64,000 nt of DNA, from NCBI GenBank assembly GCA_964393515.1, contig CAYMTY010000012.1, positions 3,473 through 67,472 of the forward strand, written 5' to 3'. Source of the DNA: an uncultured Verrucomicrobiota bacterium. GTDB taxonomy: Bacteria; Verrucomicrobiota; Kiritimatiellia; CAIQIC01; Lenti-01. Positions within the stretch are counted from its first letter, which is position 1. Each line of letters starts with the position of its first letter. The notes under the pieces were generated by a model. It saw nothing but the letters and a program-made list of their open reading frames with translations, was not told the origin of the DNA and ran no database searches. Made by a program: the position numbers and the translations under genes. Positions 2,490-50,010 of the stretch are shown here, piece after piece.

Positions 2490-5102
2490 ATGAACCGGAT
2501 GGTCCGTCACTTCGGCGCTTGTGCCGCCCTGCTGCTTACCCAGGAGTTCGCCATGTCCCAGGATCCCGTGGATGTCTTGAAAGCCGCCAACACCCACGTC
2601 CGGCGCCTCGTGCTGGACAACGGCCTGGTCGTCCTGCTCAAGGAGGACCGCAGCGCCCCGCTGGTGGCCCTCCAGTTCTGGGTCGGCGCCGGCTCCATCC
2701 ACGAGGATGAAAAACTCGGCGGAGGTCTCGCCCACTTTCTCGAGCACATGGTCTTCAAGGGCACGGCGACCCGCGGCCCCGGCCAGGTCTCCCAGGAGAT
2801 CGCCGACGCCGGCGGCGAGATCAACGCCTACACCTCGACCGACCGCACCGTGTTCCACGCCTCGCTCCCCGCCGCCCATTGGCGCACCGGCCTCGATGTC
2901 CTGGCCGATGCCGTCTTCAATCCTTCCTTCCCCGCCGACGAATGGGAACGCGAGCGCGAGGTCATCCTGCGCGAGGTCGACATGGGCGAGGACGACCCCG
3001 GCCGCGTCCACGGCCGGCTGACCGGCGAAACCGCCTACCGCGTCCACCCCTACCGCATCCCCGTCATCGGCTGGCGCGATATCCTGGTCACCATGGACCG
3101 CGACGACCTCGTTGCCTACCACCGCCGGCATTACTCGCCCGACAATATGATCCTCGCCGTCGCCGGGGCCGTGCCGGTGGACGAGTTGGAGGCCGCTGTC
3201 CGCGAGCGCCTGGAGAAGATTCCCCGCACGGCCCGCCCGCCGGCCCCCGTTCCGGCGGAGCCCCCGCAACTGGCCGAGCGCCACGGCCGCAAGACCGGCG
3301 CCTACGAAGTCACCCGCATCAACTGGGTCTTCCATACCACCGACCTGGCCGATCCCGACACGCCCGCCCTCGACGTCCTGGCTTCCGTCGTGGGTTCCGG
3401 CCGCGCCTCCCCCCTCGTCAAGCAACTGCGCGAGGAACGCCGGCTCGTTCTCAACGTGGACGCCTGGAGCTACACGCCCAAGGATCCCGGCCTTTTCGGC
3501 CTCTCCGCCGAATGCGAGCCGGAAAAGGAGGCGGACGTCATCGCCGCCCTGCGCGCGGAAGTCGCGCGCTGGCAGGCCGAACCGTTCGACCCGGCCCGCC
3601 TCGAACAGGCCCGCCGCGAAGTGCTGGCCGGCGCCATCCAGGAACTCGCCACGATGGACGGCCAGGCGGGCTCCATGGCTTCCGGCGAGTTCTATGCCGG
3701 CGATCCGCGCCACGTCGAAACCTACCTGGAGCAGGTCCGGCAGGTCACCCCCGGCGATCTCGCCCGCGTCGCCCGCAAATACCTCCGCCCCGAAAACGGC
3801 TCGTGGGCCATCCTCGCCCCCGCGGCCGCCGCGGCCGCCGCCCCCGCCGCCGCGGCCGCCGCCGGCCAGGAGGTCCAACTGCTGACGTTGTCCAACGGCC
3901 TGCGACTCGTGGTCCGCGAAGATCCGCGCCTGCCCATGGCCTATGTCGCCGCCGTCCTCGGCGGCGGCCTCCTGGCCGAGGCCGAGGGGCAGGCCGGCCT
4001 CTCCCAACTGACCTCCGACCTCCTCACGCGCGGCACGTCGCGGCACACCGCCCCGGAACTGGCCGCCATGCTCGAAGCCCGCGCCATCGCGCTGTCCGCC
4101 TTCTCCGGCCGCAACAGCTATGGCCTCAACGCCGCGGGGCTCTCCGAAGACCTGCCCCTCATGCTGGCCACCGTGGCGGAATGCCTGCTTGAATCGCAAT
4201 TCCCCGTCGACGAGCTCGACAAGCAGCGGGCCCTGCAGCTGGCCGCCATCCGGCGCGAACTCGAACGCCCCATCACCCACGCCCAGCAAATGGTCCGCGA
4301 GAGCTTCTTCCCGGGGCACCCCTACCGGTTCTCCCCGCTGGGTGACCCGGACACGGTGGCCGCCCTCTCCCGCGACACGCTCCTGGCCCACCACCGGAAT
4401 CTGCTGGGTCCGTCCAACCTCGTGCTGGCGGTGTTCGGTGACGTGCGCGCCGCCGCGGTCGCCGCGCAGGTGGAACAGGCCTTCGCCGCCCTGCCCCGCA
4501 ATCCTGCGCCCGCCTGGCCGCCCCTGCCCCCGGCTCCGGCCCAACCCGTGCGCGCCGAAAAGCGCCTGCCGTTCAAGCAAACCGTCCTGGTCCGCGCCTG
4601 GCCGGGCATCGCCGCCGGCGATCCGCGCGAAGACGCCGTGGCCGTCCTTCTCGACGCCCTCAACGGCTTGTCCTCGGACCTGTTCCTCGAGGTCCGGGAC
4701 AAGCGCGGTCTGGCCTACTACACCGGCGCCCTGCACTTCAGCGGGCCCGTGGGTGGCCTCTTCATGATCTACGCCGGCACCACCGCGGAGGGCCGCGCCG
4801 TGGTCGAAACCCAGATCCAGACCCAGGTCGACCGCCTCCGCCAGGCCGGCCTGCGCGACGAAGAGTTCGCCCGCGCCCTCGCGCAATTGCAGGCCGAAAC
4901 CGCCCGCGTCCGGCAGAACAACGCCGGCCTGGCGCAGCAATGCGCCCTCGACGAACTGCTCGGCCTCGGCTACGCCCACTCCCTCGATGCCGCCCAGCGC
5001 CTCGAGCAGCTCGCGCCCGAGGCCGTCCGCGCCGCCGCCGAATCCCTCTTCGCCGCCGCCGGCGACGCCACCGCCGTGGTTTTGCCCGGCGACAACCCGT
5101 GA
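2490..5102 (+). CDS. M16-family zinc metallopeptidase (pitrilysin/insulinase-like), tandem M16 active + inactive halves, secreted
   Basis: Inverted zinc motif HFLEH. The N-terminal half has the M16 catalytic fold and the second half (LLTLSNGLRLVVREDPRLP...) is the non-catalytic M16 repeat. 870 aa with an N-terminal hydrophobic segment. Confidence 0.85.
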   Translation: MNRMVRHFGACAALLLTQEFAMSQDPVDVLKAANTHVRRLVLDNGLVVLLKEDRSAPLVALQFWVGAGSIHEDEKLGGGLAHFLEHMVFKGTATRGPGQVSQEIADAGGEINAYTSTDRTVFHASLPAAHWRTGLDVLADAVFNPSFPADEWEREREVILREVDMGEDDPGRVHGRLTGETAYRVHPYRIPVIGWRDILVTMDRDDLVAYHRRHYSPDNMILAVAGAVPVDELEAAVRERLEKIPRTARPPAPVPAEPPQLAERHGRKTGAYEVTRINWVFHTTDLADPDTPALDVLASVVGSGRASPLVKQLREERRLVLNVDAWSYTPKDPGLFGLSAECEPEKEADVIAALRAEVARWQAEPFDPARLEQARREVLAGAIQELATMDGQAGSMASGEFYAGDPRHVETYLEQVRQVTPGDLARVARKYLRPENGSWAILAPAAAAAAAPAAAAAAGQEVQLLTLSNGLRLVVREDPRLPMAYVAAVLGGGLLAEAEGQAGLSQLTSDLLTRGTSRHTAPELAAMLEARAIALSAFSGRNSYGLNAAGLSEDLPLMLATVAECLLESQFPVDELDKQRALQLAAIRRELERPITHAQQMVRESFFPGHPYRFSPLGDPDTVAALSRDTLLAHHRNLLGPSNLVLAVFGDVRAAAVAAQVEQAFAALPRNPAPAWPPLPPAPAQPVRAEKRLPFKQTVLVRAWPGIAAGDPREDAVAVLLDALNGLSSDLFLEVRDKRGLAYYTGALHFSGPVGGLFMIYAGTTAEGRAVVETQIQTQVDRLRQAGLRDEEFARALAQLQAETARVRQNNAGLAQQCALDELLGLGYAHSLDAAQRLEQLAPEAVRAAAESLFAAAGDATAVVLPGDNP

Positions 5103-5839
5103 GCCGCCCGTTCTACCAGCGCAAGCGGACCTGGGCCCTCGCGGCCGTTGCGCTGGCGGGTTTCCTGGCCGCGGTCTACTGGCCCGAAATCACGGCCTTC
5201 CTCGACCGCTGGGACCTGCCGCACCTGCGGAAAGCCGTGCGGGCCGCCGGGGCCTGGGGGCCGCTGCTGTGCATCCTGCTTAACGCCCTCTTCACCGTGC
5301 TGAGCCTGCCGACCACTCTGGTCTGCATCGTCGTCGGACTGCTGTTTGGCGTGGGGCGGGGCCTGCCCATCTGTCTCGCCGGGCTGACCCTCGGCATGGC
5401 TGCCTCGTTCCTGATCGCCCGCTACCTGGCCCGCGGCTGGCTCCAGCGCCGCATCGGCCATACCCGGCTCTTCGCCCGGCTGGAGGAGAGCATGCGCCGC
5501 GAAGGCTGGAAAATCGTGGTCTTCACCCGCCTCCTGCCGGTCAACCCGTTCAGCGTCCTGAACTACGCCTACGGCCTCACCAACATCCCGTTCTGGCGCT
5601 ATCTGCTGGCCTCCGCCGTCGGCATCATCCCCAACATCCTCGCGCTCCTGTGGACCGTCAAGGCCGCCGGCAAACTCGCCCGGGGCCAGATGGATTGGCG
5701 CGTGCTCCTGATCCTCTTCGCCGGCGCCGGCCTGTTCGCCGTCCTCGCCTGGCTGCCGAAATACCTCCGGCGAAAACCCCGCTTCGCCGGCCTGCCGGGC
5801 ACAGCCGATGACGAGGACGGCGGAAGCTGCTCCGATTAA
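5099..5839 (+). CDS. TVP38/TMEM64 (DedA/SNARE-associated) family inner-membrane protein
   Basis: Multi-pass hydrophobic protein with a DedA-type core: LPTTLVCIVVGLLFG ... RLLPVNPFSVLNYAYGLTNIPFWRYLLAS. A GTG start at 5099 overlaps the M16 stop. The track's upstream extension to 4940 lies inside the M16 gene. Confidence 0.7.
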   Translation: MSRPFYQRKRTWALAAVALAGFLAAVYWPEITAFLDRWDLPHLRKAVRAAGAWGPLLCILLNALFTVLSLPTTLVCIVVGLLFGVGRGLPICLAGLTLGMAASFLIARYLARGWLQRRIGHTRLFARLEESMRREGWKIVVFTRLLPVNPFSVLNYAYGLTNIPFWRYLLASAVGIIPNILALLWTVKAAGKLARGQMDWRVLLILFAGAGLFAVLAWLPKYLRRKPRFAGLPGTADDEDGGSCSD

Positions 5840-9083: not shown

Positions 9084-9125
9084 TTGGTCATTGGATATTG
9101 GGTATTGGATATTGGATATTGGATA
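9084..9125. repeat. Heptanucleotide tandem repeat (TTGGATA/TTGGTCA/TTGGGTA) x6 immediately upstream of nfeD
   Basis: Direct reading: ttggtca ttggata ttgggta ttggata ttggata ttggata. This is an AT-rich microsatellite in a GC-rich genome. Confidence 0.9.
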
Positions 9126-9149
9126 TTGAGTTTTCCGTCCCCCCGCCCC

Positions 9150-10565
9150 ATGCTGGCGGGCATGAAAGCCATCTTTCTGTTGTTCGCCGCCCTGCTGGCC
9201 GTTTCCGCCGGCGCCGCAGCGGAATCCGATCTGCCCGCCCCGGCCCCGGAGGCCCCGGTCTACATCATCCCTATCCGCGGCCAGATCGAGGGCGCCCTGC
9301 TCTACGTCATCCGCCGCGGCCTCGCCGAGGCCGAACAGCGGAACGCCGCCGCGGTCGTCTTCGTCATGGACACCCCCGGCGGCACCCTCGGCGCCGCCAG
9401 CGACATCGTCCGCTCCATCCAGGCCGCCAAGCCCCCGGTTTACACCTTTGTCGAGAAAGACGCCTTCTCGGCCGGGGCCATCATCGCCCTTGCCACCAAG
9501 GCCATCTACATGGCCCCCGGTTCCGTCATCGGCGATGCCCTGCCCATCATGATGACGCCCTTTGGCGGCGTTCAGGAAATGCCCGAGGGCGTCGAGGAAA
9601 AGGCCGTCTCGGCCGTCGCCGCCCTCGTGCGCTCTGCCGCCCAGACCGCCGGCCACGACCCCGAACTGGCCGAAAAAATGGTCCGCCGCGAAACCGAGTT
9701 CAAGATCGGCGACGAAGTCATCAGCCCCGCCGGCCGGCTCCTGACGCTCACCGCCGAAGAGGCCGCCCGCCCCGGCAAGGAGGACAAGCCCCTGCTGTCC
9801 GCCGGCACCGTCAAGGATGTTCCCGCCGTCCTGGCAACCCTTGGGCTGGCCAAACAGCCCGTCGTCGAAATGCAGATCACGTCGACGGAAAAAATCGCGC
9901 GGCTGATCGCCGCCGCCGCGCCCATCCTGATGATCATCGGCTTTCTCGGCATCTACATCGAGATTAAGACCCCCGGCTTCGGCCTGCCCGGCGTCCTGGG
10001 CGCCGCCTGCCTCGCCCTCTTTTTCTGGGGCCACCACATCGCCGGCCTCGCCGGCCTGGAGGACCTGGTGATCCTGATCCTCGGGATCGCCCTGATCCTG
10101 GTGGAGATCTTCCTGATCCCCGGCTTCGGCTTCACCGGGATCTTCGGAATCGCCCTCGTGCTGGTGGCCCTGGTCGGCGCGATGGTCCGCATCGTTCCCG
10201 GCGGCGGTGTTTGGTGGCCATCCTGGGGCGATTTGCAGACGCCCATCTTCAAGACCGGCATTGCGCTGGTCGGCACCGGCGCGGGCACACTCCTGCTGGG
10301 GCGTTTTCTTCCCCAGAGCCGCCTGTTCGGCCGGCTCACCCTCTCCGCCGCAACCGCCGCCGCCGCCGGCTACACCGCCGCGCCCGATTCCTCCGCGCTG
10401 GTCGGCCGGACCGGCACCGCCGCGACCCCCCTCCACCCCGCCGGCGCCGCCCGCTTCGGCGGCGACCGCCTCGATGTCGTCACCTCCGGCGAATTCCTCG
10501 CTGCCGGCACCCCCGTCCGCATCATCGAGGCGTACGGCAGCCGCATCGTCGTCCAAAAGGTCTGA
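9150..10565 (+). CDS. NfeD-family membrane-bound ClpP-class serine protease (long form)
   Basis: Signal/TM segment, then a ClpP-like domain (VYIIPIRGQIEGALLYVIRRGL...VFVMDTPGG...AFSAGAIIALA), a multi-TM middle and a C-terminal OB-like domain. Start chosen at MLAGMKAIFLL. The track start at 9084 lies inside the heptad repeat. Confidence 0.75.
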   Translation: MLAGMKAIFLLFAALLAVSAGAAAESDLPAPAPEAPVYIIPIRGQIEGALLYVIRRGLAEAEQRNAAAVVFVMDTPGGTLGAASDIVRSIQAAKPPVYTFVEKDAFSAGAIIALATKAIYMAPGSVIGDALPIMMTPFGGVQEMPEGVEEKAVSAVAALVRSAAQTAGHDPELAEKMVRRETEFKIGDEVISPAGRLLTLTAEEAARPGKEDKPLLSAGTVKDVPAVLATLGLAKQPVVEMQITSTEKIARLIAAAAPILMIIGFLGIYIEIKTPGFGLPGVLGAACLALFFWGHHIAGLAGLEDLVILILGIALILVEIFLIPGFGFTGIFGIALVLVALVGAMVRIVPGGGVWWPSWGDLQTPIFKTGIALVGTGAGTLLLGRFLPQSRLFGRLTLSAATAAAAGYTAAPDSSALVGRTGTAATPLHPAGAARFGGDRLDVVTSGEFLAAGTPVRIIEAYGSRIVVQKV

Positions 10566-10681: not shown

Positions 10682-11200
10682 ATGAAGGCAGTGGTGGTAT
10701 ACGAATCTTTGTGGGGCAATACGGCGGCGGTGGCCCGCGCCATTGCCGAGGGGCTCGGCCCGGGCGCCCGGGCGCTGTCCACGGCCGAAGCCACCGGCGC
10801 GGTGGTGGCCGGCGTGGATCTGATCGTGGCCGGTTCGCCGCTGTTCGCCTTCCGCCTGCCCACGGAAGGCATCCGCGAAAACATCCGGCGGAAGACCTCC
10901 ATGTTCCCCCGTCCGCCCGATCTGTCGCATCCCCCCCTGCGGCAGTGGCTGGAAACCCTGCCGCCCGGCCGGGGCCGCGCCGCGGCCTTCGAAACCCGCA
11001 TCTGGTGGTCGCCCGGCGGCGCCACCAATGCCATCCTCGCCGGCCTGATCCGGGCCGGTTACCAGCCCTTGATGCGCGGCAAGCGCTTCCGCGTCGGCGG
11101 CATGTACGGCCCCCTCAAGACCGGGGAACTCGAACGCGCCCGCGCCTGGGGCGGCGAACTCGCCACCCTCGCCGGCTGGGAAAGCGGCGCCGTGGAGTAA
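10682..11200 (+). CDS. Flavodoxin-like fold protein
   Basis: N-terminus MKAVVVYESLWGNTAAVARAIAEGL is typical of the flavodoxin/WrbA fold. 172 aa. Confidence 0.55.
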   Translation: MKAVVVYESLWGNTAAVARAIAEGLGPGARALSTAEATGAVVAGVDLIVAGSPLFAFRLPTEGIRENIRRKTSMFPRPPDLSHPPLRQWLETLPPGRGRAAAFETRIWWSPGGATNAILAGLIRAGYQPLMRGKRFRVGGMYGPLKTGELERARAWGGELATLAGWESGAVE

Positions 11201-11220
11201 TCCCCCGTCCCCCGGGCGGC

Positions 11221-11577
11221 CTAGAAACTGACGCGCCAGCCGATGGCCGCGCCGGCCAGTTCGGCGGAGGCCGCCCCGCCGGTGGTCTCCAGCCCGATGG
11301 GCGCCGTGATCGCTTGCAAGACCAGGGGGGATTCCTCCGCCGCCCGCGCGGCGCGGGCGATCGCCGCATCCACGTCTTTGGCCGTGTAGCGCTCGACGTC
11401 GGACCGCAGCGACACCAGCCCGTAGACCACGACGATCGTGAACATCAGGCCGACGGTGACCGCCGCGCCGATGGAATCCGCACCCGTTTCGGCGCGCGCC
11501 GGCGCCGCCGGCAGCGTGGCCCACACCAGCGCGGCCGCCAGAATCGCCGCCGTCCCGCTCCAACCCTTGTGCTTCAT
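11221..11577 (-). CDS. Small secreted hypothetical protein (signal peptide + one hydrophobic helix), last gene of the mla operon
   Basis: Real portion of track ORF 11221..12606. MKHKGWSGTAAILAAALVWATLPAAPARAE is a signal peptide with an AXA site. ATG at 11577. Confidence 0.5.
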   Translation of the reverse strand: MKHKGWSGTAAILAAALVWATLPAAPARAETGADSIGAAVTVGLMFTIVVVYGLVSLRSDVERYTAKDVDAAIARAARAAEESPLVLQAITAPIGLETTGGAASAELAGAAIGWRVSF

Positions 11578-11600
11578 GTCCGCCTCCGCTCCTCGCTGCG

Positions 11601-12584
11601 CTAGAACGCCCCGAAGAAAATGCTGGTGAAGGTCGTGATGGGCGAGGTTTCGCGGATGTCGTCCACCGCCGCCCGGCCCTCGCGCACCAGCGCCTTGAAT
11701 TCCGTGTAGAGCTCGTCGTCGGAAACCAGCCGGCCGATCGTCCCCTCGCCCCGCGCGATGGTCTCGGACATCTGGCGGAACGCGGCCAGGGTCGCCGCCA
11801 GGTCGTCGTAGACCTGGCTGTCGCCGGTCAGCAGGCGGCCCAGCGTGCCTTCGCCCTGGTTCAGCCGCGCGCTGATGTCCTTGAGGTTCGCGGCGACGGC
11901 CTGCACGTCGCCGTACACCGCGTCGTCCTGGATCAGCTTGCCGAGCGTGCCCTCGCCCTTGGCCAGGGCGCCGCTGATGTCGCGCAGGTTGGCGGCGGCC
12001 TGCTGCACGTCGCCGTAGACCGTGTCGTCGTTGATCAGCTTGCCCAGGGTGCCTTCGCCCTCCGCCAGGCGGGTGGCGATCTTGCGGGCCTGCTGCAGCG
12101 TGCCCCGGAAGTCGTCGAGGATGCCGTCGTGGAGGGCCTGGCGGATCTCCTCGACCGTGCGGGTGGCGGCGTCGATCAGGTCGGTCGAGGGACTGCCCTG
12201 GTAGATCTTCTGCCGGGGCAGCTCCGCGGCCTCGTAGGTGCCCTCGTGGATGTTCAGGTAGCGGCCGCCCAGCACCGACGTGGGCAGCACCTCGATCCGG
12301 TAGTCCGTCCGCAGATGCACCGGCATCGTCAGCAGCGCCAGCACGTGCACGCCGTCCTTCTTCAGGGCGATCTGCTTCACCTTGCCGACCGTCACCCCCC
12401 GGGCGTTGACGGAGTCGCCCACCCGCAGCCCCATGGCGTTGTCGAACAGGATCTCCACCGGCCGCTCCGCGCGGAACAGCGCGTCGCGGCTCAGCACCAC
12501 CGTCAGCAGAAACAGCGCCGCCAGCACCGCGAAGCTGAACAGCCCCACCGCGCTTTCCACGAAAATCTGCCGCTTGAACTTCAT
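11601..12584 (-). CDS. mlaD: MlaD/MCE-family ABC-transporter periplasmic substrate-binding component with repeated GEGT(L/I)G(K/R)L coiled segments
   Basis: N-terminal TM anchor (MKFKRQIFVESAVGLFSFAVLAALFLL), an MCE domain, then four repeats of EGTLGKLI...DVQ. The start overlaps the mlaF stop. Confidence 0.85.
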   Translation of the reverse strand: MKFKRQIFVESAVGLFSFAVLAALFLLTVVLSRDALFRAERPVEILFDNAMGLRVGDSVNARGVTVGKVKQIALKKDGVHVLALLTMPVHLRTDYRIEVLPTSVLGGRYLNIHEGTYEAAELPRQKIYQGSPSTDLIDAATRTVEEIRQALHDGILDDFRGTLQQARKIATRLAEGEGTLGKLINDDTVYGDVQQAAANLRDISGALAKGEGTLGKLIQDDAVYGDVQAVAANLKDISARLNQGEGTLGRLLTGDSQVYDDLAATLAAFRQMSETIARGEGTIGRLVSDDELYTEFKALVREGRAAVDDIRETSPITTFTSIFFGAF

Positions 12585-13345
12585 GCGCCGAACGCCTTCC
12601 GGACATCCCGCAGGTCCGCGATGCCCTGGGCCTGCAGAAAGTCTCTCACGACCGGGTGCTCCGATGCAACGAATTCCTCCGGCGGGGCGCAGACCACGAA
12701 CCGGCCCTCGTGGAGCATCGCCACCCGGCTGCCGATGAACAGCGCGCTGTAGAGGTCGTGGGTCACGACCACGCTGGTCACGCCCAGCTTCCGCCGCAGG
12801 TCGTCGATCAGCCGGTCGATCTGCCGCGAAATCACCGGGTCCAGCCCGGACGTCGGCTCGTCGTAGAGCACGATCTCCGGCTGGGTCACGATGGCCCGCG
12901 CCAGGCCGACGCGCTTGCGCATGCCTCCCGAAATGCGGTCGGGCAGCTGGTCGCCCGCCCCGTCCAGACCCACCAGCGCCAGCTTCTCGGCCGCGCGCGC
13001 CCGGATCTCGTCGTCGGGCAGGTCCGTCTTCTGCCGCAGCGGCAGGCAGACGTTGTCCTCCACGTCCAGCCACTGCAGCAGCGCCGCGCTCTGGAACAGC
13101 ACCCCGAACCGCCCCAGGATCCGCTCCAGCTGCGCCCCGCGCGCTTCGCTGACGCAATCCGCCCCCACCCACACCCGGCCGGTCTCCGGCGTCAGCAGCC
13201 GGATCATGTGCCGCAGGCTCACGCTCTTGCCCGCCCCCGACCGGCCCACGATCACGAAGGTCTCGCCCGGCGCCAGCTCGAAGCTGAGGTCGTCCAGCAC
13301 CGGCTGGGCGCCGAACCGCTTGGTGACATGCTCGAATCGGATCAT
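12581..13345 (-). CDS. mlaF: ABC transporter ATP-binding protein (MlaF type)
   Basis: Walker A GRSGAGKS, signature ISGGMRKRVGLARA, Walker B VLYDEPTSGLD. 254 aa. ATGA overlaps with both neighbours. Confidence 0.9.
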   Translation of the reverse strand: MIRFEHVTKRFGAQPVLDDLSFELAPGETFVIVGRSGAGKSVSLRHMIRLLTPETGRVWVGADCVSEARGAQLERILGRFGVLFQSAALLQWLDVEDNVCLPLRQKTDLPDDEIRARAAEKLALVGLDGAGDQLPDRISGGMRKRVGLARAIVTQPEIVLYDEPTSGLDPVISRQIDRLIDDLRRKLGVTSVVVTHDLYSALFIGSRVAMLHEGRFVVCAPPEEFVASEHPVVRDFLQAQGIADLRDVRKAFGA

Positions 13346-14154
13346 TGGTAGAACAGCCTCGTCACGAAATAGCCCGTCACCAGGATCAGCAGGAACGACA
13401 CGATCACTGTGCGCCGCGTGGCGCGCCCGACGCCCACCGCGCCTTCCGTCGCGGCGAAGCCCTGGTAGCAGGCCACCGTCACGATGACCAGCCCAAACAG
13501 GAACGCCTTGAACAGCCCCACGTAGAGGTCCTTGTTGTCCGCGTAGCGGAAGGCGTTGTCGAAATAGGCCTCGAACGAGATGCCCAGCTGCATCGAGCCG
13601 ACCAGCGCGCCGCCGAAGATCCCGAGCAGGTCCGTGTAGACCGCCAGCAGCGGCATCATCACCGCCAGCGCGACCAGCCGCGGCATCATCAGGTAGCGCA
13701 GGGGGCTGATCCCCATCACGTCGAGCGCCGCGATCTCCTCGGCTACCGTCATCGTCCCCATCTGCGCGGCGATGGCCGATCCCACGCTGGCCGCGATCAC
13801 CAGCCCCGTCATGAACGGCCCCATTTCGCGCAACATTGAAATGCACACCAGCGTGCCGATGTTGTTCTCCTGCCCGTAGCGGCGCAGCTCCAGGCCCACC
13901 TGCAGGGCCAGGATCATTCCCGTGAACAGCGCCACCACGCTCACCACCCCCAGGCTCTTGATGCCCACCAGGTAGAGCTGGTGCAGCACGTCGGCGCGGT
14001 TCCGGCGCGAGAACAGGTGCGGCACCTGCGCCGCCGCCCCCAGCAGCAGCAGCAGCGCCTGCCCCGACCCCTGGCAGGCCCCGATGACCCCGCGGCCCGC
14101 CGCCACCGCCACGTTCGGCGGCGGATCGTAAATCTGGGGCTCGCGCGTGATCAT
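13342..14154 (-). CDS. mlaE: ABC transporter permease (MlaE type)
   Basis: MITREPQIYD... 270 aa multi-TM permease with the conserved MlaE core (LVCISMLREMGPFMTGLVIAASVGSA...). The track ORF 13342..14964 is extended upstream artefactually. Confidence 0.9.
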   Translation of the reverse strand: MITREPQIYDPPPNVAVAAGRGVIGACQGSGQALLLLLGAAAQVPHLFSRRNRADVLHQLYLVGIKSLGVVSVVALFTGMILALQVGLELRRYGQENNIGTLVCISMLREMGPFMTGLVIAASVGSAIAAQMGTMTVAEEIAALDVMGISPLRYLMMPRLVALAVMMPLLAVYTDLLGIFGGALVGSMQLGISFEAYFDNAFRYADNKDLYVGLFKAFLFGLVIVTVACYQGFAATEGAVGVGRATRRTVIVSFLLILVTGYFVTRLFYQ

Positions 14155-15629
14155 TTGGCTCCGGCGCCCTGCCCGCCCGGGGCGGCCAGCCGGACCCGGC
14201 CCAGCCAGAGGAGGCGCACTTGACGATTTGTAGCGGTTCGGTCGTAGGCGAGCAATCCTTTCAGCACGGACCAGCGCCGGCCGCCGGCGGCCCGCTCGTG
14301 CTGCCACAGCGGGAAGAGCGAAACCGCCCGGGCGTTGTCTTTCCGCCGCGTGTCGCGGTACAGGCCCCAGAGCACGTCGAGGTCGCGCCGCTCCCCGTTC
14401 CGGCGGTAGTCCCACAGCGTCCACAGCGGCGCCCAGCTGCGCTCGACGGGCGGGGGGTGCACGGCCGGCCAGAGGTCCGGCGCCCGCCAGAGGCAGGTGC
14501 CCGCCTCGCGGTCCACCTGCCGGGAGCATAGCGGCCAAAGCTTCGTGCGGTTGGCCACCGCCGCCGCGGCCTGGCGTTCCGCTGGCGGCAGGGCCGCCGT
14601 CTGCGACACGCAGTTCCAGAACGGCGCCACGCTCCAGCGGGTGATCTTCCGCCCGCCCCACGTGTTCTTCTCGCGGGTGATGATGGGCCACAGCCAGTAG
14701 CGCCGGTCCAGCACGCCGTCCTTGCGGTAGCCCCACAGCGGCCAGACGGACAGCCGCGTGCGGTAGCCCGTCTCCCGCTGGAAGAACGGCCACGGGCAGA
14801 ACAGCCGCGTCTGCCGGTCGCCGCCGATGCGCTGGAAGAACGGCGGCAGGACCATCCAGCCTTTCTGGCCCTCCAGGTCCACCCGGCCACAGAGCGGGAA
14901 CAGCACCCAGGCCGTGCCCGGCGCCTTGGGGTGGGTGTAGCGCGCGTGCGTCCAGAAGGGCCACAGCACCGTGTGCTTCTCATGCTGCCGCGCGTTCTTC
15001 GTGCGGGCGTAGAAGGGAAAAACCCGCAGCTTCTCCAAGTGGCCGTCGGGCGTCGTCGTCCGCGAATAAAGCGGCCAGAGCACGTCTGTCGTCCGCACGT
15101 CGTTCACCGCGCTGCGCGCCCACAGCGGCCACAGGAAAAACCGGATCCGGTCCTTCCACAGGATGTTGCGGACCTCCCCGCCCAGCGGGAACAGCGCCGC
15201 GTAGCCCCGGCCGTTTTCGTCCCGCCCGTGGAACCACAGCGGCAGGATCCAGAACCGGTACTGCGACTCCGGATCGGTCCGGTCCTTGTCGAAGAAATAC
15301 GTCGTCAGCGCCCGCCAGTAGCGCTCCGCGCCGAACGCCCGCCCCGACGCCGCCGGCCACAGGCAGTCCCACGACGACCGGTCCGTCGCCGGATCGGTCG
15401 CCCGCGCGTACAGCGGCCGCGGCACCGCCCGCAGCCGCATCCCGCCCGGCCCCTGGGCCGCCTCCCAGAACGGGCCCGCCGCGCGCAGCCGCCCGTTCCC
15501 GTCCGCGTCCACCAGCTCCGAAGCCAGCGGCCCCCAGTCCCATTCCAGGCACCACGGGACCACCGGCCCGTCCGCGCGCGCCCCCGCGCCGGCCAGCCAC
15601 GCCAGCACCGCCACGGTTTTCCACACCAT
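14151..15629 (-). CDS. Secreted protein built from about 20-aa Trp/Pro-rich repeats (LWPL / FPLW / WPFW motifs). First gene of the mla operon.
   Basis: Signal peptide MVWKTVAVLAWLAGAGARA. At least 15 quasi-periodic repeats such as VLWPLYSRTT, VLWPFWTHARY, SVWPLWGYRKD, WLWPIITREK, KLWPLCSRQVD, PLWTLWDYRRN, SLFPLWQHERA. The stop overlaps the mlaE ATG (ATGA). The track extends this ORF to 16763, but everything upstream of 15629 is the low-GC repeat region. Confidence 0.55.
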   Translation of the reverse strand: MVWKTVAVLAWLAGAGARADGPVVPWCLEWDWGPLASELVDADGNGRLRAAGPFWEAAQGPGGMRLRAVPRPLYARATDPATDRSSWDCLWPAASGRAFGAERYWRALTTYFFDKDRTDPESQYRFWILPLWFHGRDENGRGYAALFPLGGEVRNILWKDRIRFFLWPLWARSAVNDVRTTDVLWPLYSRTTTPDGHLEKLRVFPFYARTKNARQHEKHTVLWPFWTHARYTHPKAPGTAWVLFPLCGRVDLEGQKGWMVLPPFFQRIGGDRQTRLFCPWPFFQRETGYRTRLSVWPLWGYRKDGVLDRRYWLWPIITREKNTWGGRKITRWSVAPFWNCVSQTAALPPAERQAAAAVANRTKLWPLCSRQVDREAGTCLWRAPDLWPAVHPPPVERSWAPLWTLWDYRRNGERRDLDVLWGLYRDTRRKDNARAVSLFPLWQHERAAGGRRWSVLKGLLAYDRTATNRQVRLLWLGRVRLAAPGGQGAGAK

Positions 15630-15790
15630 GGAAAACTGTTTCGCCGTTTTTCCACGCAATGGAAAATATTTTTCCACACCGTGGAAAAATCGACCGGTTT
15701 TTTCCACATCCCGGAAGACTTTTTGGCGAATTTTCCACACTATGGAAAAATATTTTCCACACCGTGGAAAACTTCCCTTGTCCGCCGTCC
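15628..15790. promoter_or_regulatory. Array of six 19-21 bp palindromic sites TTTTCCAC-N3/4-(R)TGGAAAA, which are DnaA-box-like TTTTCCACA 9-mers on both strands, in a low-GC (about 40%) stretch
   Basis: Direct reading: TTTTCCACACCATGGAAAA / TTTTTCCACGCAATGGAAAATA / TTTTTCCACACCGTGGAAAAAT / TTTTTTCCACATCCCGGAAGACTTTTT / TTTTCCACACTATGGAAAAATA / TTTTCCACACCGTGGAAAAC. Five plus-strand 9-mers match the relaxed DnaA-box consensus TTWTNCACA. The first site contains the start codon of the WP-repeat gene. Confidence 0.5.
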
Positions 15791-15828
15791 GCAGAACGCG
15801 GAGACCGGGGATTTCTTCCGGATTTTTA

Positions 15829-15983
15829 CGGGCTTTCCCGCGGAAATAAGCCGCGAATTTTCCGATGAGGCCGCTTCGCGGACGACCCGAGCTGGACTCG
15901 TGTCCGCGAGCGGTCGGCCGCGAAGCGGTCGCGCGGAAAAGACGCGGCTTGGTTTCCGCGCCGTCACAATCCGGAAGAAATCC
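15829..15983. repeat. Copy A of a conserved roughly 160-bp palindromic element with 13-bp terminal inverted repeats (GGATTTCTTCCGG ... CCGGAAGAAATCC)
   Basis: About 85% identical to 46238..46402. A 50-nt core, GCCGCTTCGCGGACGACCCGAGCTGGACTCGTGTCCGCGAGCGGTCGGCC, is identical in both copies. Long imperfect hairpin potential: GCCGCTTCGCGG pairs with CCGCGAAGCGG, with the alternative partner GTCCGCGAGCGG. Confidence 0.8.
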
Positions 15984-16015
15984 CCGATTTTTCATCTCGT
16001 CACTTTCGCCATGGC

Positions 16016-17380
16016 CTACAGCAGCAGCCGGCCCTTCCCGGCCGGGCCGACGAACTGCCCGTTGCGCACCATGATCTCGCCGCGCACCGTCACCACCTCC
16101 GGCGCCCCGACCACCGCAAAGCCTTCGTAGGGATTGTAGTCCGTGCCCAGGCTCTGGGTCTTCCGCGAGATCGTGCGCTTCACGTTGGGATCCCACACGA
16201 CCAGGTCGGCGTCGAACCCCGGCGCGACCGCGCCCTTGCGCCCCCACAGCCCGAAAATTTTCGCCGGATTCTCCGCCGCCACCTCCACGAACCGCTCGAG
16301 GGAGATTTTGCCCCCCACCACGCCCGCCGTGTACGCCAGCGCCACGCGCTCCTCCACGCCCGCGATGCCGTTGGGGATCTTCGTGAAATCGCCCCGCCCC
16401 AGCGTCTTCTGCCCCTGGAAGTCGAACGGACAATGATCCGTCCCCAGCGTGTCGATGCGGCCGTCCGCCAGCCCCCGCCACAGCGCCTCCTGGTCGGACT
16501 TTTCGCGCAGCGGCGGCGAGAGGATCCACTTTGCGCCCTCGAAATCCCCGCGCTCCGCGTACGACTTGTCGAGCACCAGGTACTGGATCATCGTTTCGAT
16601 GTATAATTTCTTCAATTTTCCGCGGAAGCGGTCGGCCATGGAGAGTGCCTCGGCGCAGCTCAGGTGGACGACGTACGCCTTCGCACCCGCCGCTGCCGCG
16701 AAGGTCAGGAACTTGCAGACGCCCTCGGCCTCGACCATCGGCGGCCGGCTCGGTTCGTGCCATTCGGGCCCCGTCTTGCCTGCGGCCAGCAGCTTCTGCT
16801 GCAGCGCCGGGATCAGGTCCGCGTTCTCGCAGTGCGCCAGCACGACCAGGTCGTGCGCCGCCGCGAACTCCAGCACCCGCAGCAGGTCCTCATCCGCGAT
16901 CGCCAATGCCGGCTTGTAGGCCAGGTAGATCTTGAGCGACTTCAGCCCCTGCGCCGCCAGCCGTTCCAGTTGCTTCTCCAGTTCCGCGTCGTAGCGCCGG
17001 ACCATCAGGTGCAGGGCGTAGTCGCACGAGGCCTTCCCGTCCGCCGCCGCGCGCCACGCGGCCCACGCCTCGTCGAAGTCCTTCTCCCGCCCCGCCCCCG
17101 CGAAATCCATCAGGCAGGTCGTCCCGCCCAGCAGCGCCGCCTGCGTGCAGTTGGCAAAATCGGACTTCGCCGTCACGTTCACCAGCGGCAGCCAGGCGTG
17201 CACGTGCGGATCGATGAACCCCGGGAACACCAGCTTGCCCGCCGCCTCCACCACCGTCGCCCCCGGCGGCGGCGCGATTCCGGCCGCGACCCGGGCAATC
17301 TTTTCCCCCTCGCACCAGACGTCCGCGGCGCCGCGGCCCCGCGCCGTCACCACCTCGCCGCCGCGGATCAACAAGCCCAT
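16016..17380 (-). CDS. Cyclic amidohydrolase (dihydropyrimidinase / D-hydantoinase / allantoinase family)
   Basis: Metal-binding PGFIDPHVH, carbamyl-lysine region LKIYLAYK, HCEN and GTDHCPF motifs. 454 aa. Confidence 0.8.
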   Translation of the reverse strand: MGLLIRGGEVVTARGRGAADVWCEGEKIARVAAGIAPPPGATVVEAAGKLVFPGFIDPHVHAWLPLVNVTAKSDFANCTQAALLGGTTCLMDFAGAGREKDFDEAWAAWRAAADGKASCDYALHLMVRRYDAELEKQLERLAAQGLKSLKIYLAYKPALAIADEDLLRVLEFAAAHDLVVLAHCENADLIPALQQKLLAAGKTGPEWHEPSRPPMVEAEGVCKFLTFAAAAGAKAYVVHLSCAEALSMADRFRGKLKKLYIETMIQYLVLDKSYAERGDFEGAKWILSPPLREKSDQEALWRGLADGRIDTLGTDHCPFDFQGQKTLGRGDFTKIPNGIAGVEERVALAYTAGVVGGKISLERFVEVAAENPAKIFGLWGRKGAVAPGFDADLVVWDPNVKRTISRKTQSLGTDYNPYEGFAVVGAPEVVTVRGEIMVRNGQFVGPAGKGRLLL

Positions 17381-24463: not shown

Positions 24464-27400
24464 CTATTTGCTCCGGAGCCGGATGAAGAGCGTGCCGTCC
24501 GCGTCCGGATCCACCACGGTGTCGGTCAGCCCGGTGGTGGCGGCGCTCACCGCCCGCTGCACGCCGACCCCGGTCCAACCCGCGCCATCGGTGAGATCCT
24601 CGTTCACCATGAATTCCACGACGGCCGAGTTGCCTGCCGGGTTCACCTCGGTGACATTGTAGGTCACCACGGCGCCGGTGGCGGTTTTTTCGATGCGGGT
24701 GATGACGGTACCGGCGGTGATGCCGCTGGGGGGCCGGTCGAACCGGTTGTTGGGATCGGAACCGGCGGCCAACTCGACGCCATCGCTGTAGCCGTCGCCG
24801 TCGGAGTCCCACATCAGCGGATTGGTCCGGCGGACGACGACCTCGTCGGCATCGTTGATGCCGTCGCCGTCGGTATCCGCCATCCGGGGATCCGTGCCCA
24901 GATCCCGTTCCTGGGCATTGGGCAGGGTGTCGCCGTCGGGATCGCCGTCCGGCCCGTCGTCGCCGGTGGGAACCAGCGGATTCAGGCGGTAGCGGACTTC
25001 CCAATCGTCCTGCAAGCCGTCGTCATCGGAATCTGCGTCGCAGGGGTTGGTGCCGTTGGCCTGTTCGAGGGCGTTGGACAGGTTGTCGCCATCCGCGTCC
25101 GCGGTGCCGTCGGCGGGATCCCGCGGGTCGAGACCGGCGCAGGCCTGGTAGGTGAGTTCCCATCCGTCGAGCAGGGTATCCCCGTCGGTATCGGGATTGG
25201 CGGGATTGGTGCCGTAGATTTCGAGTTCGGCCCGGTCATTGAGCCCGTCGAAATCGCTGTCCCAGCGCATGGGATTGGTGCCCAGCGCCAGTTCGGCTTC
25301 GTCGGTCAGGCCGTCGCCGTCGCTGTCCACGTTGTTCTTCCAGTAGGCCAGCGAATTATAGATCAGCAGATTCTGGCCCGGCACCGATCCTTGCGAAGTC
25401 AGCGCCAGGGTTTTCACGGAGAATTCCAGCGCGTAGGGCAATTGAGAGCCGGTCGATCCCTTGGGGTTCGCTTTGCGGGCCAGGATGATCCCGCCCGAGG
25501 GCTCGCCCTTGAGGAAGCCCCACGGCTCGCCGACATCCAGCATTCCGTTGCTGTTCCGGTCCAGGAAACCCCGGACATGATAGGCCCCGGCGCGCAGGCC
25601 CAGCAGGGTGTAGCTGCCGTCGGCGGCCGCCCGGACACGGGCGGCGGGGGTCTGATCAAAACCGGCCCCGGCAAAGGCCTCCACGACACGCACGCCGGTA
25701 TTGGTGCCGAAGTAGCCGATCTTGCCCCGGATGGTGCCGGCCCCGACGGGCGCCGGCTGCAGGTTGACCGAGAAGGGCGCCGAGGCCGTTCCGGAGCTGA
25801 CGCGCGGATTGAGGGCCGAGACGCGGATGGCATAGTCGCCATTGGTAAAAGTTCCCCAGCCCGCCAACCAGGGCAGGTCCATCTCGGCGATGCCGGCGTT
25901 GTTGACCACCGGCGCGGGGACCGTGAAGCTCAAGAAGGTGGTCCCGCCGCGCTGAATCTGAACCGTCACCTGGGCGGCATTCTTGGAAAGGCGGAGCTGC
26001 AGCCGGTTCCGGGCATGCGGCAGGGTCATGTTGGTCGGAGACAAGATGCTCGGCGCGGCCAAGGAGGCGGCATACCAGATGCTGTTCGAGCCCGAGGCAA
26101 ATACATTGGTACCGGTCATGACGATGGAACCATCGGAGGGCGGCGCCCCACCGACCACGGCCCACTTGTAGTTCCCGTACAGGGGTGCCACGCCGGCCTG
26201 CCGGAAATCCATCTCCGTGATAAACGGCCGATCCATGGATTCCAGGTCGCGCACCGCGGAATAGATGATGGAGCCGCCGATCTGCTGGATCGATACGATG
26301 TAGGTCGTGCTGTTCACCTGCGCGAGCGCCGCGGCGATCTTCGCCAGGTCCTGCTCCCACGAGAAGCGGATGTAGCCGGCCGGCTTGTCGGTCAGGGTGA
26401 CGCGGACGTCTGCGGAGCCCCACTGGATGTTTTCGACGCCGCTCTGCGCGAAGCCCTCGCTGAAGCCCAGCCACTCGGCCTCGCCGGCTGTGCCGCCGGC
26501 GTTCCACTTGCCGTCTCCGTTGGCATCGATGAACGCCATGAAGATGTTGTTCCCCTGCCGCAGGTGGCCGACATCCCAGTTGGTGACCGTGCAGGTGCTG
26601 CCGTTGGCGAACAGGCCCTCCAGCGGGATGACGGTCCGGGCATCCGGCCGGCGCATGGCCAGGTCCGAATAGGCCCAGACCACGAGCGGGGCTTCGGCCG
26701 ACAGCGTGGCCGCCGCATCGCCCAGGAAGGTGAAGGTCACCGGCGGCACCGGATAGGAGTCGGGGTCGTCGGGCCGGGTCGGCCCCACGGCCATCCGGTT
26801 GGTGACGCCCTCCACCACGGTCAAATCAAAACCCGTTCCCAGGTATTCCGCGAGATTGTGCCAGCCGTCGCCGTCGGGGTCGGTGCCGGCGTCGTTGACG
26901 AGCGGGCTCAGCACGTCGGCATAGATGATCTCCCAGGCGTCCGGGATCAGGTCGCCGTCCATGAAGTATTCGCCGAAGCTCAGGCAGTTGCCGACGCAGA
27001 GCGGATCGTTGGAGTCGTAGTCGCTGAAGCCGTCGCCGTCGCTGTCCCAATCGGTGGGATTGGTGCCGGCCAGGTATTCGGCCAGGTTGGTCAGGCCGTC
27101 GCGGTCCGGGTCGCCGTAGGCGCCGTCGTTGCCGCGTTCGCTGTTGGGATCCAGGCCGTACAGGGTTTCCCAGCCGTCGGGCAGGCCGTCGCCGTCGCTG
27201 TCGCTTAAGAAAGGCTGGTTTTGCTGGGAGAGCACTTCAAACGCCACATCGCCCACCAGCCGGCCGGCATAGTCCCAGTTGTTCTGGTAGATCAGGTTTT
27301 CCAGGGTGGCGCCGCCATCGTCGGCGGGATAGTAGCCCACCAGCGCAGTCAGGGCGTAGACCCGCAGCGGGTAGAAGTTTTCCAGGGGTGCCTGGTCCAC

Positions 27401-48919: not shown

Positions 48920-49381
48920 CTAGGGCGCCACCGGCGGCGGCCGCGTGGCCAGAACCACTTCGCGGATGCCGGCCTTCTGCGCCAGGGCGTAGACCTCGAT
49001 CAAGGTCCCGTAGGGCGTGCCTTCGTCGGCCTCGATCAGCAGCGGCAGGCCGGCGGCCTCGCCGGCCGGACGCGCCAGGGCGGCGCCCAGCGCGGCCAGC
49101 GGCAGCCGCTCGTCGTTGAAAAAAACCTGGCCGCCCTGCGCCAGCGTCAGCACCCGCGCGCGGTAGGATGCGCCGGCGGCGAACGGCGCCTCCGGCAGGC
49201 GCAGGCGCACGCCCGGCTGCAGCACGAAATCCGCGGCGGCGAACAGGAACATCCCCGCCAGGGCCAGAATATTGAGCAGCGCGGTCACTTCGACCGGCCC
49301 CACGGCGCGGCGGTAGCGCCCGGTGAAGCGGCGGCGCACGCTCCGGAACTGCAGCTGGATGGGCTGGTCCGGAATCCTCAT
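48920..49381 (-). CDS. exbD: Biopolymer transport protein ExbD/TolR
   Basis: Single N-terminal TM (VEVTALLNILALAGMFLFAAA) plus the ExbD periplasmic domain (VFFNDERLPLAALGAAL...LLIEADEGTPYGTLIEVYALAQKAGI). Start at ATG 49381. The upstream part of track ORF 48920..50086 is out of frame with real sequence. Confidence 0.8.
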   Translation of the reverse strand: MRIPDQPIQLQFRSVRRRFTGRYRRAVGPVEVTALLNILALAGMFLFAAADFVLQPGVRLRLPEAPFAAGASYRARVLTLAQGGQVFFNDERLPLAALGAALARPAGEAAGLPLLIEADEGTPYGTLIEVYALAQKAGIREVVLATRPPPVAP

Positions 49382-50010
49382 GTTCGCGGCGCCTCCCGGG
49401 CCGGCTTCCACTGCCGCATGAAGTTCAGCAGCGCCGAGGCCGAGCGTTCCATGTCCAGCAGGATCGATTCCACGCGCGACACCAGCAGGTTGTAGCCCGC
49501 ATAGGCCAGGATGGCGATGACCAGGCTCAGGGCCGTCGCCGTGAGCGCCCGCCACAGCCCGCCCGCCAGGTCGGCCGACTGCACCAGCGGGGCGTTGCGG
49601 TTCACCGCCAGCAGCATGTCCATCATGCCCAGCACCGTGCCCAGCAGCCCGATCAGCGGCGTGATGCGCGCCAGCGTCGCCAGCCAGCCCAGACCGCGTT
49701 CCATCCGCGGGATCTCCTCGAGGCCGGCGTCCTCGATCGCCCGCCCGATGTTCTCCAGCGTGTCGTCGTGGTGCAGGACCGCCGCCAGGGCCAGCCGGGC
49801 CACGGGTCCCGGCGCCTCCTCGCAGATCGCCGCCGCCTCGACCGGGTTGTCGCGGTTGAGGATGTTGTAAAGGCCCTTCAAAAAGTCGTCGGGCGCGATC
49901 TGCGCGCGGTGCAGGTTGAACAGGCGCTCCAGGAAAACCAGTGCCGTGACCAGGCCGCAGCCCAGCAGGATCCAGACCACCGGCCCGCCGTTTCCGATCA
50001 GGTTCAACAT
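49378..50010 (-). CDS. exbB: MotA/TolQ/ExbB proton-channel family protein
   Basis: Three TM helices with the conserved ITPLIGLLGTVLGM segment. 210 aa. It overlaps the exbD start. Confidence 0.8.
   Translation of the reverse strand: MLNLIGNGGPVVWILLGCGLVTALVFLERLFNLHRAQIAPDDFLKGLYNILNRDNPVEAAAICEEAPGPVARLALAAVLHHDDTLENIGRAIEDAGLEEIPRMERGLGWLATLARITPLIGLLGTVLGMMDMLLAVNRNAPLVQSADLAGGLWRALTATALSLVIAILAYAGYNLLVSRVESILLDMERSASALLNFMRQWKPAREAPRT

Follow-up and report, generated by a model that had tools for sequence, protein, structure and literature searches.

Which protein, if any, stands at the outer-membrane end of an Mla transporter whose MlaD has no outer-membrane barrel of its own? The question is raised by a five-gene operon in a 64,000-nucleotide stretch of DNA from an uncultured Verrucomicrobiota bacterium of the class Kiritimatiellia (contig CAYMTY010000012.1), hereafter the window. 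In it, the genes for an MlaE permease, an MlaF-type ATP-binding cassette (ABC) ATPase and a long MlaD are headed by the gene for an exported protein full of Trp-Pro repeats, which we call WP. In their analysis of 1083 genomes, Grasekamp et al. (2023) described MlaEFD as a widespread ancestral core and MlaABC as essentially proteobacterial (PMC10665443). Most MlaDs are "long", and those of the Planctomycetes-Verrucomicrobia-Chlamydiae (PVC) and Fibrobacteres-Chlorobi-Bacteroidetes (FCB) groups lack the C-terminal barrel of the Veillonella type; the route by which such barrel-less MlaDs reach the outer membrane was left open (PMC10665443). Here we report that the transporter encoded at this locus is of a known kind, that its WP accessory belongs to a family not previously described, whose predicted fold matches no solved structure, and that the association of the two is class-wide. 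We also propose, tentatively and with a little less than even confidence, that WP acts at the outer membrane as a cap or docking partner of the MlaD needle, in the manner of PqiC/PA3214.

An MlaEFD operon headed by the WP gene

Start-codon analysis placed five co-directional genes on the minus strand at positions 11221-15629 of the window. The first, WP (14151-15629), encodes an exported, basic, Trp/Pro-rich protein of 492 amino acids (aa) with beta-hairpin repeats. It is followed by mlaE (13342-14154; 270 aa), an mlaF-type ABC ATPase gene (12581-13345; 254 aa), a long, barrel-less mlaD (11601-12584; 327 aa) and a small gene (11221-11577; 118 aa). An independent gene caller gave the same 492/270/254/327/118-aa products on a Logan contig that carries an identical WP protein. 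We read the gene junctions directly, and found ATGA overlaps between WP and mlaE, between mlaE and mlaF, and between mlaF and mlaD. The original prediction for this locus, made from the letters alone, had chained all five genes by such overlaps. This holds for three of the four junctions but not for the last, since mlaD stops at TAG and the 118-aa gene starts after a gap of 23 nt, preceded by a Shine-Dalgarno-like GGAGCGGAGG. A convergent gene terminates 20 nt past the 118-aa gene and a non-coding stretch of 386 nt lies upstream of WP, and the operon therefore consists of these five genes. A sigma-70 promoter scan found nothing, and an Rfam search of the window gave no match. The G+C content of the window is about 68%, which explains the long spurious open reading frames (ORFs) present in every frame.

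Judged by its sequence, the Mla part of the operon is ordinary. The three core parts of an MlaFED-type system are present, namely an MlaE-family permease, an adjoining ABC ATPase and a membrane-anchored MCE protein. MlaE matched PF02405 at 9e-73, covering 211 of the 212 profile positions, and scored above the TIGR00056 cut-off (221.9 vs 212.2). The ATPase, whose gene has ATGA overlaps at both ends, matched PF00005 (ABC_tran) at 2e-28; its score against the MlaF equivalog NF008809 (157 bits) was below the cut-off of 441, so we refer to it as MlaF-type and not as a strict equivalog. The MlaD equivalog model was likewise not reached. In MlaD, a hydrophobic N-terminal transmembrane helix precedes the MCE domain (residues 41-114; PF02470 at 7.6e-15, 55.4 bits vs a cut-off of 25.1), and about 190 aa of putatively helical repeats follow it. 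These include the four repeats reported in the original prediction, which we counted as GEGT[LI]G[KR]L motifs at residues 176, 210, 244 and 279, with a period of 34-35 aa. Matches of PF28544 (Helical_needle) to MlaD and its orthologues were faint or weak only, and the closest solved relatives, MlaD and Mce1 chains in the PDB, align with MlaD over the MCE domain only.

Compared with the E. coli MlaFEDB-MlaC-MlaA/OmpC system, MlaE, MlaF and the MCE domain are homologous, whereas MlaD is much longer (327 aa vs 183 aa). MlaA (PF04333), MlaC (PF05494) and the STAS protein MlaB gave no match in the approximately 45 ORFs of the window that were scanned, in agreement with what had been noticed from the sequence. 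That absence is no anomaly: MlaEFD alone is the ancestral and most widespread state (PMC10665443). The same study lists three Kiritimatiellales genomes in its Supplementary Data 1, two of which have MlaEFD only, without MlaA, MlaB or MlaC (PMC10665443). Veillonella parvula also has an MlaEFD-only operon, and its MlaD consists of a transmembrane helix, an MCE domain and a helical extension of at least 150 aa (PMC10665443), an order shared by the one described here with its putatively helical repeats. However, the V. parvula MlaD carries a C-terminal 10-strand outer-membrane barrel, while the MlaD in the window has none and its operon has the separate, beta-rich WP instead. The V. parvula mla operon is followed by tolC and tamB and has no WP before it, whereas here WP heads the operon. 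We considered a 10-strand outer-membrane barrel at the C-terminus of our MlaD and rejected it, as only about 12 hydrophobic residues (ITTFTSIFFGAF) come after the putative helical part. A tiny tip of six strands, as in Mce1, is possible in long MlaDs that have no barrel (PMC10665443).

WP and mlaEFD are linked throughout the class

The synteny of WP with mlaEFD was analysed in both directions. Scanning one genome for each GTDB species, we confirmed 166 WP loci and fetched 80 of them (34-68% identity). mlaE was present within 400 nt downstream of WP, on the same strand, in 70 of the 75 loci with at least 1 kb of downstream sequence, and all of mlaE, mlaF and mlaD lay downstream in 57 of the 64 loci with at least 3 kb. 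Conversely, when MlaE was the query and 80 metagenome loci were fetched, WP was found directly upstream of mlaE in 45/52 loci with at least 900 nt upstream. Of 55 loci in which the junction could be evaluated, 39 retain the exact 4-nt ATGA overlap between the WP stop and the mlaE start, and they extend to identities as low as 34%. On the upstream side the neighbour of WP varies: the close clade has panD-amidohydrolase there, and 22 distant loci have a glmM-like PGM_PMM gene. Since the upstream neighbour changes while mlaEFD stays, WP is linked to mla and not to the neighbourhood.

The conservation of this synteny had been suggested as a check in the original prediction, which saw in WP a possible partner of the MCE transporter. 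The tight two-way synteny and the kept ATGA overlap make an accessory role of WP for the transporter well founded, and to that extent the proposal stands. Its outer-membrane location, in contrast, we infer from the lipoprotein variants of the family and the analogy with PqiC/PA3214, both described below. The further analogy with LetB was a poor one, because LetB is itself an MCE protein.

In two or three metagenome-assembled genomes (MAGs) labelled "Victivallales" (among them L075, positions 10757-16675, and L084), which account for two of the loci that depart from the complete mlaE-mlaF-mlaD order, a block inserted right after mlaE splits the operon. The block carries genes for an AAA-type ATPase and for a type I restriction-modification methylase, and mlaF and mlaD were not found within 8 kb. 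In the 22 distant loci (L001, L004, L036, L039 and others), the phosphoglucosamine-mutase-like gene (PGM_PMM I-IV) runs up to the start of WP or overlaps it, and is preceded by the genes for a conserved 404-aa protein without Pfam matches and an AI-2E-family permease. In this large distant clade the PGM_PMM gene extends the WP operon into envelope-precursor metabolism.

WP might, on another account, be an envelope protein outside lipid transport, one that, for example, binds peptidoglycan, lipopolysaccharide or polysaccharide or serves as a structural periplasmic scaffold, and that sits in the operon for co-regulation only. Aromatic-rich hairpin repeats are typical of cell-wall and choline-binding modules. 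WP adjoins the glmM-like envelope-precursor gene in the 22 loci just mentioned, it persists unlinked from mla in some lineages, and the paper that described the beta-flower folds, to which we return below, notes related folds annotated as cell-wall binding (PMC10584680). However, a two-way linkage of 87-93%, together with a class-wide 4-nt overlap, goes far beyond usual co-regulation, and WP matched no carbohydrate- or peptidoglycan-binding family in Pfam or NCBIfam. We consider this account unlikely. If it were true, the finding would shrink to an ordinary MlaEFD operon with an unclassified neighbour.

WP is an exported, basic protein of an undescribed family

A word-indexed search retrieved at least 635 WP homologues, all of them unnamed or "hypothetical". 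With a profile, searched against 1.84 billion cluster representatives, we found 1942 representatives of 50%-identity clusters at E<=1e-3 and 717 at E<=1e-30. Almost all the homologues come from Kiritimatiellia/PVC genomes, their source labels being Kiritimatiellia or the older PVC labels for such MAGs (Verrucomicrobia, Lentisphaerae, Victivallales, Pontiellaceae). WP had no match in Pfam or NCBIfam at E<=0.1, and the family profile had none among PDB sequences. A search of the full-text literature returned no paper that ties Kiritimatiellia to Mla or that describes the WP family. The WP ORF is thus a real, conserved gene, a point that had been left for checking, and the first reading of the sequence was right in finding no name for its repeat.

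Trp and Pro make up 7.5% and 7.7% of the protein, respectively. Across 55 homologues we identified 19 conserved Pro-centred turns, mostly spaced 16-21 aa apart, in which 18 of the Pro residues are invariant. A 5-residue Pro-centred motif occurs 13 times in WP, compared with 0.41 copies expected and a maximum of 4 in 5000 shuffles, and the hydrophobic autocorrelation is highest at lag 18. The aromatic-Pro repeats noticed in the letters are therefore genuine. Conservation is evenly spread over residues 120-300 and 361-480, which led us to abandon the notion that a binding module at the C-terminus is specially conserved.

Comparison of the N-termini of the 55 homologues defined residues 1-20 of WP (15570-15629, minus strand) as a signal peptide of the signal peptidase I type, with cleavage between ...LAGAGARA and DG, in line with the signal peptide that had been predicted. 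A lipobox is present in 62 of 243 WP homologues (about 25%), never with Asp at position +2, and most members of the family have a signal of the signal peptidase I type. As signal peptides occur throughout the family, WP acts outside the cytoplasm. The lipobox variants would be tethered to a membrane, and to the outer membrane under the +2 rule of E. coli, a rule that is unverified for this phylum. Mature WP has a grand average of hydropathy (GRAVY) of -0.53, an isoelectric point (pI) of 10.45 and a net charge of +30, and the pI exceeds 9 in 89% of the homologues.

These properties bear on the possibility that WP is a soluble periplasmic lipid carrier, an analogue of MlaC that hides acyl chains in a Trp-Pro core. 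WP is exported and hydrophilic overall, with a large cluster of aromatic residues that would be buried, and most members of the family lack a lipid anchor; in addition, MlaC was found neither in the ORFs of the window nor in two of the three Kiritimatiellales genomes surveyed. Yet a quarter of the family are putative membrane-tethered lipoproteins, a protein of 470 aa with a charge of +30 is unlike known lipid chaperones, and the cavity is hypothetical. Moreover, a long MlaD of the needle type makes a shuttle unnecessary (PMC10665443). A carrier function is, in our judgement, quite unlikely.

WP is predicted to fold as a continuous beta-meander

The structure prediction suggested for WP at the outset was run with AlphaFold2 on an alignment of 55 homologues, and gave a model with a pLDDT of 91.5 and a pTM of 0.79. 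It contains an N-terminal helix, which corresponds to the signal peptide, two short helices and 46 strands, each 5-8 residues long and connected to the next by a turn of 2-6 residues. The fragment comprising residues 120-346, folded alone, reached a pLDDT of 96.4. The most conserved contiguous motif of WP, ERSWAPLWTL (14415-14444, minus strand), which is also the pattern that the locus-finding tool chose for the family, lies on one of the short helices (residues 393-403) in a WP-type turn. In the model this helix is inserted between strands 378-383 and 406-411, and seven coevolutionary couplings join the flanking strands.

The couplings were obtained, as a check on the topology without AlphaFold2, with a pseudolikelihood model run for about 117 iterations on 339 homologues, whose effective number of 259 sequences for 381 columns is too sparse to fix the tertiary fold. 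Mean-field direct coupling analysis of 339 sequences gave noise, with a few columns dominant, and was discarded. Among the 400 strongest couplings, 158 connect consecutive predicted strands in antiparallel register. The top 500 cover 43 of the 44 consecutive strand junctions, also antiparallel, with no period-4 gap, and WP is therefore one continuous beta-meander and not a propeller. Consistent with this rejection of the propeller, in Foldseek searches propellers gave template-modelling (TM) scores of 0.09-0.15 with the whole protein, and among the 50 fragment matches they were few and none scored above 0.22.

Long-range couplings were sparse but not random. Residues 31-60 share 9 couplings with residues 420-481 (2.45 expected, p=8e-4), and residues 70-84 share 5 with the helix region 385-405 (0.34 expected, p=3e-5); control blocks had no excess. 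These couplings indicate that the WP body is compact, with its N- and C-terminal parts together, and not a loose ribbon. Couplings from rim to rim were in twofold excess, which may partly reflect compositional covariation between repeats and is not proof of a common core. Averaged over the family, hydrophobicity is high (0.7-1.0) only from position -4 to position +2 relative to each Pro, and low (0.07-0.3) in the remaining dozen or so residues of the hairpin, which are polar. Because hydrophobicity is limited to the Pro turns, WP would form a sheet with one Trp-Pro rim, the remainder of which is polar.

Foldseek found no global match for the whole of WP in the PDB (TM at most 0.20). The best matches of the 120-346 fragment were an engineered OspA and the TCP10/G-box of CPAP (probability 1.00, TM 0.27-0.34, root-mean-square deviation 12-16 A), and the teneurin YD shell matched with a TM of 0.26-0.28. 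Engineered OspA, the CPAP TCP10/G-box and the teneurin/Rhs YD shell are, like WP, long runs of antiparallel hairpins in one continuous sheet. They have no sequence similarity to WP, however, and lack its hydrophobic Trp-Pro rim, and at these TM scores and deviations the curvature or global shape of WP must differ from theirs. According to the model, WP is a hairpin-repeat meander of the single-layer type, folded compactly.

This prediction is neither a transmembrane barrel nor a classical solenoid, the two folds that the repeats had first suggested. The solenoid was the nearer of the two, although a continuous single-layer-type meander is not a solenoid of the classical kind. The barrel fared worse. 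An integral outer-membrane beta-barrel, a channel like TGD4 or LptD, would be all-beta, carry a signal peptide and contain many aromatic residues, as WP does, and in plants the MlaEFD homologues TGD1-3 work with TGD4, an outer-envelope beta-barrel. But the predicted strands of 5-8 residues are too short to cross a membrane, which takes about 9 residues or more. Two thirds of each hairpin are polar; within a repeat of 18-19 aa only the segment from -4 to +2 is hydrophobic, and the strands show no alternation that would turn one face to lipid. The GRAVY and pI given above, together with the existence of lipoprotein members, do not suit a barrel either. The C-terminal tail is variable and of low confidence, and has no terminal aromatic residue that could serve as a beta-signal. 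A single membrane barrel appeared in the two Foldseek top-50 lists, VDAC1 at rank 48 with the whole protein (TM 0.09-0.14, probability 0.28). The barrel is accordingly close to refuted, and we give it hardly any credence.

WP shares several features with the beta-flowers of the Tubby-like clan CL0395 described by Durairaj et al. (2023; PMC10584680). In both, the hairpins measure about 19 aa and carry a [DNEQ]xxG-like tip. In beta-flowers, aromatic side chains from the ends of the strands pack against a hydrophobic helix, and in WP the conserved helix couples with distant hairpins; some beta-flowers are lipoproteins, as in the WP family, and relatives bind lipids (PMC10584680). Beta-flowers, however, have 8-12 strands, compared with about 45 in WP. 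Membership of the clan was rejected, since WP had no match to PF21784-PF21786 and no Tubby or scramblase structure was among the Foldseek matches. The likeness does not go beyond the period of the hairpins and the packing of aromatics on a helix.

An invariant MlaD peptide and the proposed role of WP

The last 20 residues of MlaD, DDxRETxPxTTFTSIFFGAF-COOH, are almost invariant in 64 orthologues from 64 species. The same orthologues range from 251 to 335 aa in length and have 0-4 GxGTxGKL motifs, with putative helical regions that differ by more than 80 residues. In the window this tip, DDIRETSPITTFTSIFFGAF-COOH (11604-11663, minus strand), is a candidate docking or insertion peptide. Using cryo-electron microscopy and mutational scanning, Giacometti et al. 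(2026) demonstrated that PA3213 and PqiB bind, by way of their C-terminal peptides, to a hydrophobic groove in PA3214 and PqiC, respectively, that this contact sets partner specificity, and that the groove-bearing partners are outer-membrane lipoproteins (PMC13631591). An invariant, hydrophobic MlaD C-terminal peptide, encoded together with an exported WP that has an aromatic surface, fits this pattern.

The likeness extends to the general plan of these systems. PA3211-PA3214, PqiABC and the Brucella Mpc Mla-Pqi chimera share three elements with the operon described here: an engine in the inner membrane, which in PA3211-12 and Mpc is an MlaE/F-type ABC transporter; an MCE protein with a helical extension long enough to cross the periplasm, which for our MlaD would be the case by analogy; and a dedicated accessory encoded in the same operon. 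In these systems the specificity of the contact between MCE protein and lipoprotein lies in a C-terminal peptide of the former (PMC13631591; PMC12436622), and the MlaD in the window also ends in an invariant peptide. There are differences as well. WP is an all-beta meander of about 470 aa without a Pfam match, whereas PqiC and PA3214 are small subunits of an octameric ring; most WP proteins are not lipoproteins, and the WP gene is located before mlaE and not after the MCE gene.

The following scheme would accommodate these observations. MlaF2E2 would act as the inner-membrane ABC engine that drives lipid movement through a hexameric MlaD ring and needle; we infer the lipid substrate and the direction of transport. 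Each MlaD would contribute a transmembrane helix, a portion of the MCE ring and about 190 residues of helical repeats to a hexameric needle that spans the periplasm, by analogy with PqiB, Mce1 and the Veillonella MlaD. WP would be a lineage-specific exported accessory, made in fixed proportion with MlaE by means of the ATGA overlap, in which the Trp-Pro turns form a hydrophobic rim or core while the remainder is polar and strongly basic. Its place would be at the distal end of the needle, on the inner face of the outer membrane, where it could be held by a lipid anchor in about a quarter of the lineages and by its aromatic rim and basic surface elsewhere. There it would dock the MlaD C-terminal peptides (TTFTSIFFGAF) and complete the lipid path from the needle to the outer membrane. 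WP would then do for MlaD the job that PqiC and PA3214 do for PqiB and PA3213, with an unrelated fold. A more specific version of this scheme, which we regard as possible but rather doubtful, is that WP is a monomeric coiled beta-ribbon of about 45 strands with a lipid-facing or membrane-inserting Trp-Pro rim, which receives six MlaD peptides at the outer membrane. WP would in that case represent a new and structurally unprecedented class of MCE partners, forming the outer-membrane terminus of the PVC MlaEFD bridge.

Several observations weigh against the docking of WP at the outer membrane. The contact between WP and MlaD and the outer-membrane site are hypothetical, and so would be any groove or pore in WP. 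The WP in the window has no lipid anchor, as it has a signal peptidase I site and no lipobox, and WP resembles PqiC, MlaA or TGD4 neither in sequence nor in fold. Its gene precedes mlaE and is coupled to the permease and not to MlaD, whereas PqiABC and PA3211-14 have the gene for the lipoprotein after that for the MCE protein. The class is not universally without a shuttle route, because Kiritimatiella glycovorans, its type species, has an MlaA-MlaC-MlaDFE cluster (AKJ63436-40) in addition to a second, MlaEFD cluster (AKJ64008-10) (PMC10665443). Finally, WP lies away from mla in about 5 of the 75 lineages, a clade to which sheep-rumen MAGs belong (L003, L034 and, from sheep rumen, L031-L033); in L034, mlaF and mlaD are 5 kb upstream of WP, and in L031 unrelated metabolic genes follow it.

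From the MlaE side, the seven mlaE loci without WP upstream include a tight group with 75-83% MlaE identity, which may correspond to the unlinked-WP lineages of the species scan. mlaEFD without an adjoining WP was seen in L095-L097 and L099-L101; a 694-aa ORF that overlaps mlaE in L097 was discarded as an out-of-frame Arg/Pro artefact of the high G+C content. Lineages in which WP and mlaEFD are both present and unlinked constitute a natural test of mutual dependence.

The position of the WP gene also speaks for WP working at the other end of the transporter, as a periplasmic subunit or assembly factor on the periplasmic face of MlaE or on the MCE ring, for example by gating or loading the channel. 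The conserved coupling is to mlaE, with WP as the first gene; the lipoprotein variants could stay in the inner membrane if the sorting rules of PVC bacteria differ, and a basic surface would suit the anionic outer leaflet of that membrane. Nevertheless, no such subunit exists in the known MlaFED or MCE complexes, Asp is absent from +2 in all 62 lipobox variants, so that the E. coli rule favours the outer membrane, and the invariant C-terminal peptide of MlaD would be left without a partner. We think an inner-membrane role for WP fairly unlikely, and continue to favour, with the caution expressed above, a partner of MlaD at the outer membrane.

The small fifth gene and the upstream palindromes

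The 118-aa product of the last gene had been described as a small secreted protein. It has a signal-like segment followed by a second hydrophobic helix, of 22 aa, and then a tail of about 65 aa that ends in GWRVSF. Because of the second helix it is more likely a small membrane protein than a secreted one; from its sequence, it probably sits in the inner membrane with its tail in the cytoplasm. That it stands in for MlaB is a guess. The gene is kept only in the close clade (18 loci), and its product had no match in Pfam or NCBIfam. The conserved end of the tail, GWR[VM][ST]F, resembles an outer-membrane beta-signal, although a barrel would need a far larger protein.

In the 386-nt region upstream of WP we identified five tandem 19-bp palindromes, TTTTCCAYNGYGTGGAAAA (15617-15771), spaced 22, 31 or 61 bp. 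They gave 9 strand-matches, compared with 0 expected, and occur nowhere else in the window. The last copy holds the start codon of WP, as ATGGTGTGGAAAA encodes M-V-W-K and so provides the W-K of the signal peptide. Palindrome arrays are also present upstream of WP in most loci of the close clade (at least 50% identity), and at other intergenic sites of relatives (L007, L025, L032, L055, L065 and L081), suggesting that they are a clade-wide intergenic repeat and not an operator specific to this operon. Two of the copies score as weak terminator-like hairpins, and the candidates for the array are an operator array, a weak terminator or an element like the repetitive extragenic palindromes. Gene callers read through the arrays, which explains spurious N-termini of the FSTVWK/FFHGVEK type in relatives.

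Other genes of the window

Two giant adjacent genes on the minus strand (24464-34495 and 35167-44130) encode products of 3343 and 2987 aa. The first contains Laminin_G_3, VWA and bacterial TSP3 repeats, and the second two subtilase S8 domains with fervidolysin-type prodomains, NHL repeats, CarboxypepD_reg and TSP3. Both are probably huge surface or secreted proteins. The window also carries genes for a DedA/VTT-domain membrane protein (4940-5839, plus strand), an NfeD-type membrane protease (9084-10565, plus strand) and a MotA/ExbB-family proton channel (49378-50010, minus strand). None of these three envelope genes is syntenic with WP in the relatives.

Significance

How phospholipids move between the two membranes is still unsettled, and the transporter in its ancestral and most common form is now taken to consist of MlaEFD alone, with a long MlaD (PMC10665443). 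For those in which MlaD has no barrel, WP provides a concrete, class-wide candidate for the outer-membrane end, to which the invariant MlaD peptide would be the match. Regardless of what its function turns out to be, WP defines a family of about 1900 cluster representatives at 50% identity, with no Pfam entry and with a confidently predicted fold that superimposes on no PDB entry.

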